The notes beneath the pieces are model-generated. The model made no database searches. It was given only the letters and a program-made list of their open reading frames with translations, and had not been told where the DNA came from. The position numbers were made by a program, and so were the translations under genes. Shown here one piece after another: positions 399 through 59,069 of a DNA stretch of 64,000 nt; position 1 is the stretch's first letter; every line of letters starts with the position of its first letter. The DNA comes from Escherichia coli (GTDB lineage: Bacteria > Pseudomonadota > Gammaproteobacteria > Enterobacterales > Enterobacteriaceae). The stretch is from the NCBI RefSeq assembly GCF_024223415.1, contig NZ_CP100500.1. One strand, 5' to 3'.

Positions 399-3300
399 TT
401 ATTCCGGGCGCGGCTTCAGCGGGAAGCGGCGGCGCACCAGCACAAAGAACAGCGGCACGAAGTAAATAGCCAGAATAGTAGCTGAAATCATCCCGCCCAT
501 TACGCCAGTACCCACCGCATGCTGACCACCGGAACCGGCACCCGTGCTGGTTGCCATTGGCAATACGCCGAAGATAAATGCCAGCGAGGTCATCAGAATC
601 GGGCGTAAACGCTGACGGCAGGCGTGGAGCGTTGCTTCAAACAGGTCGTGGCCTTTTTGGTTCATCTCGTTAGCAAACTCGACGATCAGGATGGCGTTTT
701 TCGCCGATAAACCAATGACCGTTAACAGGCCCACCTGGAAGTAAACGTCGTTTTCCAGCCCGCGCATCCAGGTTGCCAGCAGCGCGCCGATTACCCCCAG
801 CGGCACGACCAGCATTACCGAGAACGGTACCGACCAGCTTTCATACAATGCAGCCAGACACAGGAATACCACCAGCAAGGAAATGGCGTACAGCGCCGGA
901 GCCTGCGCGCCGGAAAGCCGCTCCTGATACGACATCGCCGTCCACTCCAGACCAAAGCCGTTTGGCAGCTGCTTCACTAACGATTCCATAATATCCATCG
1001 CCGTACCGGTACTGACCCCCGGTGCGGCTTCCCCAACAATTTCAACCGCAGAATAACCGTTATAGCGTTCCAGACGCGGCGAGCCTGTCTCCCAGCGTGA
1101 GGTCGCGAAAGCAGAGAAGGGCACCATGCCGCCATCTTTATTTCGGACATACCAGAGATTGATGTCATCTGGCAGCATGCGATACGGCGCAGCTGCCTGC
1201 ACATAGACTTTCTTCACGCGACCGCGATCCATAAAGTCATTCACATAGCTCGAACCCCAGGCGGTTTGCAGTGTGTCGTTAATATCGTCGATAGCAACGC
1301 CCAGCGCCTGAGCTTTACGCTGGTCGATATCAATCTGCAACTGCGGACTGTCGTCGAGGCCGTTATGGCGCACACGGGTTAGCTCCGGGTTTTCCGCCGC
1401 CAGCGCCAGCAACTGGTTACGTGCTGCCATCAGCGCATCGTGACCTGCTCCAGCGTGGTCCTGCAACTCCATATCAAAACCCGCAGAACTACCAAGACCG
1501 CTAATTGCTGGCGGGCTGCTGGCGATAACGCGAGCTTCTTTAATCTTGTTAAACGCCTTCGTTGCACGCTCGATAATGGCAAATGAGGTGCCGGTCTTAC
1601 TGTCGCGTTCGCTCCAGTCTTTCAGGCGGATAAACATTCGCGCCACGTTTTGCCCGTTACCCCCAGGGCCAGAACCAACAGTGGCAAACACCGACATGAT
1701 GTTGTCTTTTTCATGGGTGAAGTAATATTTCTCGATTTGCTCAACGACTTTCAGGGTCTGTTGTTGGGTTGAACCGCTGGGCAATTGTACCGAGGTAGTA
1801 AACATGCCACGGTCTTCCAGCGGTAAGAACGACGTCGGTAAACGCAGGAACAGGAACACCATGCCGCCAAGCAGCAGGACATAAATCACAATCCAGCGCA
1901 GGCTGCGGTGGAGAATTTTCGCCACCCCTTTTTCGTAGCGTTCGGCGTTGCGGTTAAACATCTGGTTAAACCAGGCAAAAAAGCCTTTTTGCCCGTGATG
2001 CTCACCTTTTTTCAGTGGCTTAAGTAGTGTGGCACACAGAGCCGGAGTGAGGATCATCGCTACCAGTACTGACAGCACCATCGCCGCAACAATGGTAATA
2101 GAGAACTGGCGATAGATGGCACCGGTGGTGCCGCCGAAGAAGGCCATTGGTACAAATACCGCCGAAAGCACCATCGCAATCCCGACCAGTGCCCCCTGGA
2201 TCTGCCCCATCGATTTACGTGTGGCTTCGCGAGGACTGAGTCCTTCCTCACTCATAATACGTTCGACGTTTTCCACCACCACGATGGCGTCATCCACCAG
2301 CAGACCGATCGCCAGCACCATCGCGAACATGGTTAAGGTGTTGACGCTGTAACCGAAGGCGTAAAGTACGGAGAAGGTTCCCATCAACACCACCGGCACG
2401 GCGATAGTGGGTATCAGCGTGGCGCGGAAGTTTTGCAGGAACAGATACATAACGAGGAAAACCAGAGCGATAGCTTCCAGCAGCGTTTTCACCACGTCTT
2501 CAATGGAGGCTTTAACAAACGAGGTGGTTTCATACGCCACCTTGTATTCCAGTCCATGCGGGAAATACTGCGCCAGCTCGTCGAGACGATTGAGCACCAG
2601 CTCCGCTGTCGCCATTTCGTTAGCGCCGGAGGCCAGTTTTACCCCCAGCCCGGAGGCTGGCTTACCATTGAAGCGGCTAAGATAATCGTATTTCTCCGCC
2701 CCCATTTCGACGGTGGCGACATCGCCCAGCCTTACCTCTGAGCCGTCCTGATTCACCCGCAAGGTGATATCGCGGAACTGTTCTGGTGTTTGCAGCAGTG
2801 ACTGGGCGTTAATGGTGGCGTTGAGCGCCTGCTTATCGACGGAAGGTGTACCACCAAGTTGCCCAACCGCAATCTGCGCGTTCTGTGACTCAATGGCATC
2901 AGTGACATCTTTAGCCGTCATCTGGAAACTGTTGAGTTTCGCCGGGTCCAGCCAGATACGCATGGAATATTGCGAACCATAGGCATCGATATCCCCGACG
3001 CCATTCACGCGGCTTAACGGGTCCTGAATATTACTGGCAACATAATCGGCAATATCCTGTTTATCCATCGAACCATCGGTAGAGACGAAAGCAATGGTCA
3101 GAATATTGGTATCGCCGGTTTTACGCACCGTCACGCCCTGATTTTGCACCGCCTGCGGTAACTTTCGCATGGCTGATTGCAGCTGGTTTTGTACTTGCTG
3201 CACGGCTTCGTCCGGATCGGTGCCTGCTTTAAAACTTAAAGTGACAGATGCCTGACCGGTGCCACTGCTCTGAGATGACATATACATGAGATTATCGAGG

Positions 3301-3512
3301 CCGGTCATATTTTGCTCGATAACCTGGGTCACGGTGTTTTCCAGCGTCTGGGCCGATGCGCCGGGATAGTTAGCGGTCACTCGCACATTCGGTGGCGCGA
3401 GATCGGGGTATTGTTCAACGGGCAATGAAAAAATCGCCAGGGTACCTGTCAGACACAACAGGATTGCCAGCACCCAGGCAAAAATGGGGCGATCAATAAA
3501 GAAATTCGCCAT
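399..3512 (-). CDS. acrD: RND aminoglycoside/multidrug efflux pump AcrD (1037 aa)
   Basis: Full-length ORF; translation recognised as AcrB/AcrD-family RND transporter of the length expected for AcrD. Confidence 0.9.
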
Positions 3513-3582
3513 TAAAAGAGGACCTCGTGTTTCTGCGTATCGTTGTAGGCTTGACTTGCTTCACTGTAGCGGCAAGGTACGA

Positions 3583-3602
3583 GCCAATCGTGGAGAAAAA
3601 AA
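3583..3602 (-). promoter_or_regulatory. candidate BaeR box upstream of acrD
   Basis: Minus-strand sequence tttttttctccacgattggc resembles the BaeR consensus TTTTTCTCCATDATTGGC as recalled; lies about 70-90 bp upstream of the acrD start. Confidence 0.4.
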
Positions 3603-3675
3603 GGAGTTAATGTAAATTATCATGCCCTTTTATACTGAACCTTAAGTGCAAGTATTCTTTGGTCAGTAGGAGGCA

Positions 3676-5376
3676 TTACATTAACTGACTTTCCTCACCC
3701 TCCGCAGAGCGAAAGCTAATACTCACTAACGTGCCGCCGCCGGAAGGTTGTGAAAAAGTCAGCGTCCCACCCAGCCGTTCCGCGCGTTCGCGCATGATAT
3801 TCAGACCATAATGACCTTCGGGTTCTTTCGGTTCACCGATACCAATCCCGTTATCACGGATATAAACCGTGTGATTGCCGTCCGGCGCGGTGACGCAACT
3901 GACGGCGATTTCGCTGGCGTTGGCGTGCTTCATCGCATTCAGCACCGCTTCGCGAATAATTTGCAACAAATGCACCTGCATTTGCGCATCCAGTGCCAGG
4001 GTTGGCAGACGGCAGTCGAGGGTCAGTTTGGCGCTGGTTTGATTTTGTAACGTATCCAGCATTTCCCTCAACGCGGAGGGGAGATCCGCCTGCTGCAGCG
4101 TCAGGCGGAAAGTAGTCAACAGCTCGCGTAACTGCCGATAAGCATCATTCAACGCCTGGGAAAAATCGGCCATGATACTTTGTGCGGTGGCGTTATCTTC
4201 CGGTATCGAACGCTTAAGTAACGTCAACTGGATACGTAAGTAAGAAAGTACCTGAGCCAGCGAGTCGTGCAATTCGCGGGCGATGGTTGCACGTTCTTCC
4301 ATCAACAATAACTGCTGAAAATGCTTCTGCGCCTGATTAAAGTACAAACCGCGTCCCAGCATCGACGAAACGCTGTTAAGCAGCGGTTCTGATGATGAAA
4401 CGTGACTATTTTGCCAGTGCAGTTCGCCGTAAACCGTCTCTTGCATTGTCACCGGTAAAATCTGCATCGGCAATTCCGGGTTTGGTTGCCCTTCGCTAAT
4501 CCGCCAGTTTTCACCGACATTTAACTCCAGATATTCAGCCGCTTCATTGTCGCGAACAATCTGCAAAATATGGCGGAAACAATGCACATCAATCTGGCTA
4601 GTGTTCAGCGCCTGCGAACACTGATACAACACCTCCAGACGACGCTTGGCCTCGTGGAGATCGCGGGTCTTTTCTTCTACTGACGCTTCCAGCGAACGGT
4701 ACAATTTATGCAGCTCGCTCGACATCTGGTTAAAGGTTTTTGCAAGTAGACCAAGCTCATTCGGCAGACTGGTATCCAGCGGCGGCGAGTCGAACTGCCC
4801 GTGTTCAATACGCTGACTGGCGGTAACCAGCTGATTCAGCGGGGCAACCACCTGATGGCGTATGCGGCGCAAAGTAAAAAAGACCAGCGTGAAAATACCG
4901 ATGCCGCCAGCCAGGGAAATCGCCACCACCAGCAGCATTTTGCGTTCAGCGTAGTGCTGTAAAGCCAGCACGAACAGGTCTATCTGATTAACATAATTAT
5001 TAATATTGGCCTGATACCACGGCAAATCGCCCTTGCTGAGCCGATTATTCATCTCCAGCCAGTTGGCATTCAGATGCGCATAGCGAGTTTTTACTGCTTC
5101 TGGCACATACCAGACGTTGAGGTTGGTTAATACCGGTGAATGCAGTGCCTGCTGAAATAACTGGCGATGTGCATTGAGTTGTGGACTGCCACTTTGCAAG
5201 TCGTAGCCCAGGCGGTAACTCTGCATACGCAGCGATCCGGCAATATTGATAGCCTCAGCGTCGCGCAAACTGCTCGCCAGAGTTAGCAGAGCGATACCCG
5301 TGGAAAGAATCGACAGCAGCACAATGTAAAAAAAGGCCCGGGCCAGACTGGCCGAGACGGGTCGTTTAACAATCAC
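3676..5376 (-). CDS. narQ: nitrate/nitrite sensor histidine kinase NarQ (566 aa, GTG start inferred)
   Basis: ORF 3676-5391; translation recognised as NarQ (HAMP, H-box and ATPase motifs); start set at the codon giving MIVKRPVSAS. Confidence 0.85.
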   Translation of the reverse strand: MIVKRPVSASLARAFFYIVLLSILSTGIALLTLASSLRDAEAINIAGSLRMQSYRLGYDLQSGSPQLNAHRQLFQQALHSPVLTNLNVWYVPEAVKTRYAHLNANWLEMNNRLSKGDLPWYQANINNYVNQIDLFVLALQHYAERKMLLVVAISLAGGIGIFTLVFFTLRRIRHQVVAPLNQLVTASQRIEHGQFDSPPLDTSLPNELGLLAKTFNQMSSELHKLYRSLEASVEEKTRDLHEAKRRLEVLYQCSQALNTSQIDVHCFRHILQIVRDNEAAEYLELNVGENWRISEGQPNPELPMQILPVTMQETVYGELHWQNSHVSSSEPLLNSVSSMLGRGLYFNQAQKHFQQLLLMEERATIARELHDSLAQVLSYLRIQLTLLKRSIPEDNATAQSIMADFSQALNDAYRQLRELLTTFRLTLQQADLPSALREMLDTLQNQTSAKLTLDCRLPTLALDAQMQVHLLQIIREAVLNAMKHANASEIAVSCVTAPDGNHTVYIRDNGIGIGEPKEPEGHYGLNIMRERAERLGGTLTFSQPSGGGTLVSISFRSAEGEESQLM

Positions 5377-12729: not shown

Positions 12730-15009
12730 ATGGATGACCAGTTAAAACAAAGTGCACTTGATTTCCATGAATTTCCAGTTCCAGGGAAAATCCAGGTTTC
12801 TCCAACCAAGCCTCTGGCAACGCAGCGCGATCTGGCGCTGGCCTACTCACCAGGCGTTGCCGCACCTTGTCTTGAAATCGAAAAAGACCCGTTAAAAGCC
12901 TACAAATATACCGCGCGCGGTAACCTGGTGGCGGTGATCTCTAACGGTACGGCGGTGCTGGGGTTAGGCAACATTGGCGCGCTGGCAGGCAAACCGGTGA
13001 TGGAAGGCAAGGGCGTTCTGTTTAAGAAATTCGCCGGGATTGATGTATTTGACATTGAAGTTGATGAACTCGACCCGGACAAATTTATTGAAGTCGTCGC
13101 TGCGCTCGAACCGACCTTCGGCGGCATCAACCTCGAAGACATTAAAGCGCCAGAATGTTTCTATATTGAACAGAAACTGCGCGAGCGGATGAATATTCCG
13201 GTATTCCACGACGATCAGCACGGCACGGCAATTATCAGCACTGCCGCCATCCTCAACGGCTTGCGCGTGGTGGAGAAAAACATCTCTGACGTGCGTATGG
13301 TGGTTTCCGGCGCGGGTGCTGCAGCAATCGCCTGTATGAACCTGCTGGTAGCGCTGGGGCTGCAAAAACATAACATCGTGGTTTGTGATTCAAAAGGCGT
13401 TATCTATCAGGGCCGTGAGCCAAACATGGCGGAAACCAAAGCCGCATATGCGGTGGTGGATGACGGCAAACGTACCCTCGATGATGTGATTGAAGGCGCG
13501 GATATTTTCCTCGGCTGTTCCGGCCCGAAAGTGCTGACCCAGGAAATGGTGAAGAAAATGGCTCGTGCGCCAATGATCCTGGCGCTGGCGAACCCGGAAC
13601 CGGAAATTCTGCCGCCGCTGGCGAAAGAAGTGCGTCCGGATGCCATCATCTGTACCGGCCGTTCTGACTATCCAAACCAGGTCAACAACGTCCTTTGCTT
13701 CCCGTTTATCTTCCGTGGCGCGCTGGACGTTGGCGCAACCGCCATCAACGAAGAGATGAAACTGGCGGCGGTACGTGCGATTGCAGAACTGGCCCATGCG
13801 GAACAGAGTGAAGTGGTGGCTTCAGCGTATGGCGATCAGGATCTGAGCTTTGGTCCGGAATACATCATTCCAAAACCGTTTGATCCGCGCTTGATCGTTA
13901 AGATCGCTCCTGCGGTCGCGAAAGCGGCGATGGAGTCGGGCGTGGCGACGCGTCCGATTGCTGATTTCGACGTCTACATCGACAAGCTGACTGAGTTCGT
14001 TTACAAAACCAACCTGTTTATGAAGCCGATTTTCTCCCAGGCTCGCAAAGCGCCGAAGCGCGTAGTTCTGCCGGAAGGGGAAGAGGCGCGCGTTCTGCAT
14101 GCCACTCAGGAACTGGTAACGCTGGGACTGGCGAAACCGATCCTTATCGGTCGTCCGAACGTGATCGAAATGCGCATTCAGAAACTGGGCTTGCAGATCA
14201 AAGCGGGCGTTGATTTTGAGATCGTCAATAACGAATCCGATCCGCGCTTTAAAGAGTACTGGACCGAATACTTCCAGATCATGAAGCGTCGCGGCGTCAC
14301 TCAGGAACAGGCGCAGCGGGCGCTGATCAGTAACCCGACAGTGATCGGCGCGATCATGGTTCAGCGTGGCGAAGCCGATGCAATGATTTGCGGTACGGTG
14401 GGTGATTATCATGAACATTTTAGCGTGGTGAAAAATGTCTTTGGTTATCGCGATGGCGTTCACACCGCAGGTGCAATGAACGCGCTGCTGCTGCCGAGTG
14501 GTAACACCTTTATTGCCGATACCTACGTCAATGACGAACCAGACGCAGAAGAGCTGGCGGAGATCACCTTGATGGCGGCAGAAACTGTCCGTCGTTTTGG
14601 TATTGAGCCGCGCGTTGCTCTGTTGTCGCACTCCAACTTTGGTTCTTCTGACTGCCCGTCGTCGAGCAAAATGCGTCAGGCGCTGGAACTGGTCAGGGAA
14701 CGTGCGCCAGAACTGATGATTGATGGTGAAATGCACGGCGATGCAGCGCTGGTGGAAGCGATTCGCAACGACCGTATGCCGGACAGCCCTTTGAAAGGTT
14801 CCGCCAATATTCTGGTAATGCCAAACATGGAAGCTGCCCGCATTAGTTACAACTTACTGCGCGTTTCCAGCTCGGAAGGTGTGACTGTCGGTCCGGTGCT
14901 GATGGGCGTGGCGAAACCGGTTCACGTGTTAACGCCGATCGCATCGGTACGTCGTATCGTCAACATGGTGGCGCTGGCCGTGGTTGAAGCGCAAACCCAA
15001 CCGCTGTAA
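12730..15009 (+). CDS. maeB: NADP-dependent malic enzyme MaeB (759 aa, malic enzyme + PTA-like domain)
   Basis: Full ORF; malic enzyme N-domain plus C-terminal phosphotransacetylase-like domain. Confidence 0.9.
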
Positions 15010-15299
15010 TTCTTTTTTAACTCTCACGCTTACCCTGAATATTCAGGGTAAGCGGTCCAGCTGCAATATATTAGTAAAGATTATTACTGAGTTTACGAAT
15101 AATAAAAAAAGCAATATAAAATATCTCGATATTATTTTATTTATATTCATGCGTCGCATATGAAAGTTTATTCATAACAGTAAATATCTCTCCATTCTTA
15201 GTGATCTACCTCACCTTTTAAACGCGCTTGCCGAATTTTGTTATTTACTCTGACGAAAAATTGTCACGATACACGAAAGTTTTTCACAGGCGGCGACTC

Positions 15300-15635
15300 A
15301 TGGATAAAGAACGCATCATTCAGGAATTTGTGCCCGGCAAACAGGTCACGCTGGCGCATCTCATCGCGCATCCCGGCGAGGAACTGGCGAAGAAAATTGG
15401 CGTTCCGGATGCGGGCGCAATTGGCATTATGACGCTAACTCCTGGCGAAACGGCGATGATCGCCGGTGATTTAGCATTGAAAGCCGCTGATGTGCATATC
15501 GGTTTTCTCGACCGCTTCAGTGGTGCATTGGTGATTTATGGCTCGGTGGGCGCAGTAGAAGAAGCGTTATCACAAACCGTCAGTGGCTTAGGTCGCTTAT
15601 TAAATTATACGCTTTGTGAAATGACCAAAAGTTAA
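15300..15635 (+). CDS. eutS: BMC shell protein EutS (111 aa)
   Basis: ORF 15228-15635; start set at [10 protein letters not shown]; first gene of the eut operon. Confidence 0.85.
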
Positions 15636-58852: not shown

Positions 58853-58913
58853 ATCGCAGATAGCAAAAAAGCGCCTTTAGGGCGCTTTTTTACATTGGTG
58901 GGTCGTGCAGGAT
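58853..58913. repeat. 61-bp direct repeat, copy 1 (lysV 3-prime end plus terminator)
   Basis: Identical to 59009-59069: atcgcagatagcaaaaaagcgcctttagggcgcttttttacattggtgggtcgtgcaggat. Confidence 0.85.
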
Positions 58914-59008: not shown

Positions 59009-59069
59009 ATCGCAGATAGCAAAAAAGCGCCTTTAGGGCGCTTTTTTACATTGGTGGGTCGTGCAGGAT
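59009..59069. repeat. 61-bp direct repeat, copy 2 (authentic lysV 3-prime end plus its terminator)
   Basis: Includes the last 18 nt of tRNA-Lys and the rho-independent terminator hairpin gcgcctttagggcgc with its T/A runs. Confidence 0.85.

Follow-up and report, generated by a model that had tools for sequence, protein, structure and literature searches.

Stable stem-loops that close a gene without a U-tract are a described class in E. coli, where Rho-dependent transcripts end right after such energetically terminator-like structures, to which PNPase and RNase II trim them back (Dar and Sorek 2018, PMC6061677). The same study predicted that terminators can switch type via a change in their U content (PMC6061677). 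A dual role has also been proposed for REP elements, as partly Rho-dependent 3'UTR terminators and as mRNA stabilisers (bioRxiv 10.64898/2026.03.23.713779). Here, we analysed a 64-kb stretch of E. coli DNA (the window, in which all positions are given) where a long palindrome follows maeB, and found at this gene end a stable stem-loop without a U-tract. Like the protective stem-loops of Dar and Sorek (PMC6061677), it comes after a CDS, has neither a U-rich tract nor an upstream A-tract, and precedes untranslated RNA that includes a C>G stretch. It differs in that this stretch begins only ~75 nt downstream, in a spacer that is mostly A+U, and in that Rho dependence and trimming are predictions for maeB. 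With REP elements in 3'UTRs it shares the nature of an extragenic palindrome after a gene, but it occurs at a single locus. We propose, with a probability of about 0.7, that the palindrome is a terminator/stabiliser stem-loop at the 3' end of the maeB mRNA, with a degenerate U-tract and with Rho probably helping release. It is in this sense an ordinary feature, a gene-end stem-loop of a known class, and we found no individual description of it in the literature.

The maeB gene, coding for NADP-dependent malic enzyme, occupies 12730-15009 on the + strand (a 759-aa open reading frame annotated as maeB in matching E. coli genomes), with talA upstream on the - strand and eutS starting at 15300. 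A T-rich 17-nt spacer, read directly from the sequence (15010-15026, + strand), leads from the TAA stop codon (15007-15009) to the palindrome at 15027-15054, CGCTTACCCTGAATATTCAGGGTAAGCG (cgcttaccctgaatattcagggtaagcg), which is perfect over 28 bp (14 + 14); in K-12 the spacing is 16 nt. An earlier note on this DNA had described a perfect 28-bp palindrome with 12-bp arms around ATAT, directly following the maeB stop, and both points are correct, the first to the exact coordinate and the second with a start 17 nt after TAA. As RNA of the maeB-sense (+) strand, the palindrome forms a 12-bp stem with seven G-C pairs and a 4-nt AUAU loop. Folded by itself it reaches -20.4 kcal/mol, and within 81 nt of context -24 kcal/mol (z = -4.2); the hairpin is also kept in a 341-nt fold. 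One hallmark of an intrinsic terminator, a stable stem-loop just 3' of the gene on the sense strand, is thus present.

This palindrome is real, non-random and far beyond chance. It is the longest perfect palindrome in the window, where the runner-up measures 16 bp, while in 100 shuffles of the window the longest palindrome spanned 12-22 bp and by analytic expectation 2.5e-4 palindromes of 28 bp or more would occur per window. A single copy of the palindrome is present in the window, even when up to three mismatches are allowed. With a 40-nt query, 5409 of 5426 complete E. coli genomes gave two BLAST places, a single palindromic site being matched on both of its strands. We therefore rejected identity with REP/BIME repeats, which occur in many copies, since the site is a single locus per E. 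coli genome; it does not match the REP consensus either. Searches of plasmid and phage collections returned no meaningful relatives of the palindrome, the plasmid matches being mislabelled chromosomes and the phage matches 31-nt AT-rich noise, and with a single-copy site in E. coli and no real plasmid or phage match we also rejected an origin from a mobile element or repeat family. A scan against Rfam 15 gave chance-level matches only, such as rli38 (23 bits against a gathering threshold of 49, E = 1.7) and a 16-nt petD fragment. Elsewhere in the window, the canonical terminator hairpin AAAAAAGCGCCTTTAGGGCGCTTTTTT occurs twice in identical form, at 58865-58891 and, 156 nt further on, at 59021-59047.

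How the same position looks in other genera is central to our reading. Using the last 200 MaeB residues as an anchor, we compared 80 loci of different Enterobacteriaceae species, and a stable hairpin lies within 90 nt of the maeB stop in all 80. Outside Escherichia, eutS follows maeB at 22 of these loci, and at 19 of the 22 a GC-rich hairpin starts 14-20 nt past the stop, with at least five T in the next eight bases. These canonical terminators, typically GGCGCGGG-loop-CCCGCGCC and then TTTTTATTTT, have a median energy of -17.1 kcal/mol and a median T-tail score of 4.7 (range 4.2-5.3; the score is our own implementation of a d'Aubenton-Carafa-type weighting), and a terminator scan calls those of Citrobacter portucalensis and Salmonella enterica. 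The maeB terminators of Citrobacter, Klebsiella, Pseudocitrobacter, Yokenella and Salmonella are like the hairpin in the window in gene, strand and the 14-20 nt spacing, are of comparable or weaker energy, and are in most cases followed by the eut promoter block. In contrast, they have a short GC-only stem with six to seven T in the next eight bases, whereas the window has a longer, mixed stem with two T in eight. The palindrome is thus found where other genera have the intrinsic terminator of maeB. The conservation across Enterobacteriaceae that the earlier note had proposed to check extends to a hairpin at the maeB end, which is found at all 80 loci, but not to the palindrome itself, which is missing from Citrobacter, Klebsiella, Salmonella and Yokenella. 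Because the Escherichia stem has no sequence similarity to the GC-rich stem of the other genera, it may be a functional replacement that arrived together with the AT-rich spacer rather than a direct descendant, and a history of U-tract decay would accordingly be read from four Escherichia lineages.

Several other arrangements were seen after maeB. In two Citrobacter loci (L012 and L021), an insertion of ~125-210 nt just after the maeB hairpin (at about locus position 2143) splits the T-run, so that the canonical hairpin is kept with TTC only and the rest of the T-run, TTTTTATTTC, lies beyond the insert. This is an independent parallel of a maeB terminator losing its U-tract. In Enterobacter and Leclercia loci without eut (L040, L044, L048, L067, L080 and others), REP-like elements (GTCGGGTGGCGC..GCTTACCCGACCTAC) are found in the first 90 nt past maeB, and other such loci carry CCCTCACCCTAACCCTCTCCC...GGGAGAGGG palindromic repeats after the gene. 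Since most of these elements lack a T-run, gene-end hairpins without a U-tract are common for maeB. A 9-nt match, CGCTTACCC, between the E. coli stem and the Enterobacter REP-like elements was considered as a sign of kinship and set aside, being compatible with chance (~0.15 by a rough count). In E. coli 19AR0656 (L006), an IS1 lies just after maeB (2611-3723 of the locus) and a deletion has removed the hairpin along with eutS and the 5' part of eutP; the strain has thereby lost the eut promoter. In two Salmonella enterica subsp. arizonae loci (L103 and L104), the gene upstream of eutS is not maeB but an opposite-strand radical-SAM/SPASM gene, in a eut upstream region that is otherwise S. enterica-like. 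EutS (111 aa) shares its 90% identity cluster with many EutP (159 aa), and the representative of that cluster has 159 aa, which looks like a clustering artefact in the collection.

Could the hairpin terminate transcription on its own? A Rho-independent terminator, with a long stable stem offsetting a poor U-tract and release occurring at the hairpin, would fit the stem, which at -20.4 kcal/mol is more stable than the canonical maeB median of about -17 kcal/mol. It would not fit the tail. In the window allele, the stem is followed by GTCCAGCTG (GTCCAGCT), with two T in the first eight bases, where a U-rich tract would have about five or more U in the eight bases directly 3' of the stem. The U-tract position itself (15055-15066, + strand), which reads GTCCAGCTGCAA in this allele, is degenerate. 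A terminator scan of 14800-15500 detected no terminator-like or promoter-like site on either strand, and the T-tail score is 0.58, against 4.2-5.3 at canonical sites. The earlier note had stated that there was no downstream T-run, and both the count of two T in eight and the absence of a scan call on either strand agree with it. Its corollary, that this is not a canonical intrinsic terminator, is accurate for the window allele but overlooks that the hairpin is the Escherichia counterpart of one.

This counterpart status becomes apparent when other Escherichia alleles are inspected. The exact 52-nt window allele is carried by 112 of 5426 E. coli genomes and the perfect 28-mer by 4049 of them, while ~1200 or more have one mismatch, consistent with the K-12 type, in which the last stem base is changed from G to A. 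E. coli tails read GTTTAG, GTTTGG or GTTTTCC, or GTCCAG as in the window, so that most alleles keep GUUUAG, GUUUGG or GUUUUCC, which speaks for release at the hairpin. The sister species do so too, since they keep four to five U and pass the scan. In E. whittamii, the orthologous hairpin CGCTTACCCTGAGTAATTCGGGGTAAGCG is followed by the tail ATTTTTATAT (ATTTTTATATT; ATTTTTAT), and in Escherichia sp. MOD1-EC7003 the hairpin CGCTTACTCTGGATTATTCGGGGTAAGCG is followed by GTTTTATTGC; the scan calls both terminator-like on the + strand. These two orthologues (L007 and L009) have a U-rich tract as defined above, and in E. ruysiae an identical 28-mer is followed by GTTTATCG. T-tail scores descend from 2.65 in E. 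whittamii to 1.56 for the GTTTAG allele, 0.94 in K-12 and the 0.58 of the window. Since E. albertii and E. fergusonii are absent from the 80 loci and from both protein-cluster listings, the ancestral tail state within Escherichia is one that we infer from the lineages compared. No part of the region is less conserved than the tail (8-77% identity), suggesting that a U-tract is under little selection, and this again argues against release by the hairpin alone. While the near absence of Eut proteins in uninduced cells (PMC11334477) would be expected of an efficient terminator, we consider it unlikely that the hairpin works unaided in this way.

In contrast to the tail, the stem is strongly conserved. 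Between the window and E. ruysiae, the hairpin is identical at 28 of 28 positions, while identity is 54% in the 12-nt tail, 73% in the AT-rich spacer, 90% in the eut promoter block and 95% in the 3' coding sequence of maeB. In a genome labelled E. coli SCPM-O-B-8794 (L008), the hairpin is again 28/28 and the spacer, owing to a deletion, only 42% identical. This pattern suggests that selection acts on the stem and not on the tail. In an alignment of eight sequences, 99% of the stem cells are paired, and three pairs vary, each on one side only and to U·G or G·U; the sole unpaired cell is the terminal C·A of K-12. On the opposite strand, the same substitutions are A·C mismatches. The maeB-sense strand is accordingly the more stable, with -17.9 vs. 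-8.5 kcal/mol in MOD1-EC7003 and -20.7 vs. -16.3 kcal/mol in E. whittamii. Since the wobbles pair only in maeB-sense RNA, they point to a structure used in that RNA, with a strand bias that, at three variable pairs against one opposite case (the terminal C·A of K-12), is statistically weak. No double-sided compensatory change was seen in the stem of the eight sequences, which makes covariation shuffles uninformative.

These observations also bear on whether the palindrome might be a relic without function, kept by chance, such as a remnant end of an earlier insertion through which the AT-rich spacer arrived. Both the hairpin and the spacer are Escherichia-specific and replace an ancestral GC-rich terminator, and the Citrobacter insertions in L012 and L021 show that independent insertions have occurred at the same spot. 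However, a relic would hardly be identical at 28 of 28 positions in E. ruysiae next to sequence that is 54-73% identical, the changes seen in the stem preserve pairing, and the element neither has a plasmid or phage relative nor belongs to a repeat family, which leaves a relic very improbable. That the palindrome is an RNA hairpin at the maeB 3' end, one of two possibilities raised by the earlier note, is supported by the terminators at the same position in other genera, the T-runs in sister species, the conservation of the stem and the pairing in the maeB sense.

The palindrome might also be a DNA operator bound by a dimeric transcription factor that regulates eut or maeB, and the earlier note had raised a dimeric regulator, with EutR as a candidate. 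In favour of this, the dyad symmetry runs unbroken through the loop, conservation in E. coli and E. ruysiae is strong, and the half-site CTGAAT looks similar to those of LacI-family regulators such as Cra. The likeness to Cra-type operators is confined to the perfect dyad and the CTGAAT-like half-site, while the palindrome lies at a gene end, outside the promoter block, and its symmetry is not conserved in sister species; nor does its centre have the CG spacing of LacI-family sites. One stem position breaks the dyad in E. whittamii and three do so in MOD1-EC7003; in both, symmetric positions differ (T vs. C and similar) and the centre gains a base. The perfection of the dyad across the loop is best regarded as accidental, a self-complementary 4-nt loop having a chance probability of 1/16; together with the series of tail alleles, it is all that is unusual about the feature. 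There is, moreover, a single locus per genome with no second site, which lies 2.3 kb past the start of maeB and ~140 nt short of the eut promoter block, and our literature search returned no paper linking a regulator to the maeB-eutS spacer.

Cross-genus alignment of the intergenic regions revealed a strongly conserved eut promoter block (~15195-15299) that runs up to the eutS ATG, which includes TTCTTAGTGATCTACCTCACCTTTTAAA...CTTGCCGAATTTTGTTATTTACTC and is common to Escherichia, Citrobacter, Klebsiella, Pseudocitrobacter, Yokenella and Salmonella. In Citrobacter, the Klebsiella oxytoca group, Pseudocitrobacter and Yokenella, it comes directly after the terminator, in an intergenic region of ~160 nt. 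EutR is an AraC-family activator, and this family typically uses non-palindromic sites. Within the block, GTGATCTACCTCAC at 15201-15214, then followed by CTTGCCGAATTTTGTTATTTACTC, closely matches the CRP core TGTGA-N6-TCACA. EutR binds the eutS promoter (PMC4643982), and the papers that we found on EutR and this promoter give no mapped EutR site. The block, not the palindrome, is likely the seat of CRP and EutR control. The palindrome is entirely absent from genera that share this promoter block and its regulator; it is thus not co-conserved with the promoter that it would regulate and is unlikely to be part of eut control. A role as a dimeric regulator or EutR site is hence not supported, considering also the dyad broken in sister species, and an operator of any kind appears highly improbable.

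Between the hairpin and this block lies an AT-rich, untranslated spacer of about 140 nt (15055-15194, + strand; 75% A+T). The palindrome had been placed at the upstream edge of an AT-rich eutS promoter region; AT-rich sequence does follow it, but the promoter block starts only at ~15195, about 140 nt away. The spacer is Escherichia-specific in the cross-genus alignment, with none in Citrobacter or Klebsiella, where the intergenic region measures ~160 nt, and it has no relatives in the plasmid and phage collections. It evolves fast, with 42-89% identity within Escherichia, and is partly deleted in L008, whose intergenic region is 236 nt. An imperfect inverted repeat at 15146-15164, TTCATGCGTCGCATATGAA, is kept across Escherichia species, with improved pairing in E. 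ruysiae (7-8 pairs in TTCATGTGCTGTACATGAA). Lying ~140 nt upstream of eutS, it may represent either another small structure or a site for a protein.

We regard this spacer as a candidate zone for Rho loading and release. In 78-nt windows, the C/G ratio is 0.7-0.9 for starts at 15030-15090 and 1.5-2.25 for starts at 15130-15210, with a low absolute C content throughout, so that the C>G stretch (~15130-15230) begins only ~75 nt downstream of the hairpin. C/G stays below 1 in the first 80 nt past the hairpin, and with so little C in the region as a whole a rut site, if there is one, would be weak. On the model that we favour, Escherichia has in this hairpin its counterpart of the maeB transcription terminator, and the 12 bp would fold just beyond the reach of the terminating ribosome, as the 17-nt spacing presumably allows. 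With its degenerate U-tract (GUCCAG), the hairpin should by itself be inefficient at releasing RNA polymerase. The polymerase would then run into the untranslated AT-rich spacer and be released there by Rho, maybe after some weak intrinsic termination; 3'-to-5' exonucleases would trim the RNA back to the hairpin, which would set and protect the steady-state maeB 3' end and would insulate the eut operon from maeB transcription. In K-12 W3110, MaeB can be quantified and stays constant, but when ethanolamine and B12 are not supplied there is hardly any detectable Eut protein, EutS included (PMC11334477). This scarcity beside MaeB indicates that little productive read-through reaches eut, and lends indirect support to an effective insulation. 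A full-text literature search for maeB with Term-seq, Rho, bicyclomycin, Hfq or 3'UTR returned nothing relevant.

The spacing between stop codon and stem also bears on a possible action on translation, in which the hairpin would stall the terminating ribosome and lower MaeB output via trans-translation, like REP elements near stop codons. Liang, Rudd and Deutscher reportedly described in 2015 such a stalling effect of a REP near the stop codon, for which the stem is said to be needed within ~15 nt of the stop. A stable stem does lie close to the maeB stop codon (17 nt here, 16 nt in K-12), but this spacing equals the 14-20 nt of ordinary terminators in other genera, and we give a role in translation almost no credence.

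Taken together, these findings clarify that a striking palindrome beside a virulence-related operon is, on the reading that we prefer, gene-end punctuation rather than a hidden regulator site, which saves effort on EMSA and pull-down experiments. More speculatively, the Escherichia maeB gene end might be a natural series switching terminator type, with a U-tract in sister species, UUU in most E. coli and UCC in a minority, in which tail alleles tune maeB-to-eut read-through. We hold this to be a doubtful proposition; if true, differing read-through from maeB, which is transcribed constitutively, into eutS-R would give a strain-specific, EutR-independent basal expression of the eut genes for ethanolamine utilisation, a trait linked to gut colonisation. 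The wider value of the locus is modest: it offers a clean comparative example, with alleles within one species and an independent parallel in Citrobacter, that illustrates how terminators may drift between Rho-independent and Rho-dependent modes, the U-tract being lost and a protective stem-loop kept.
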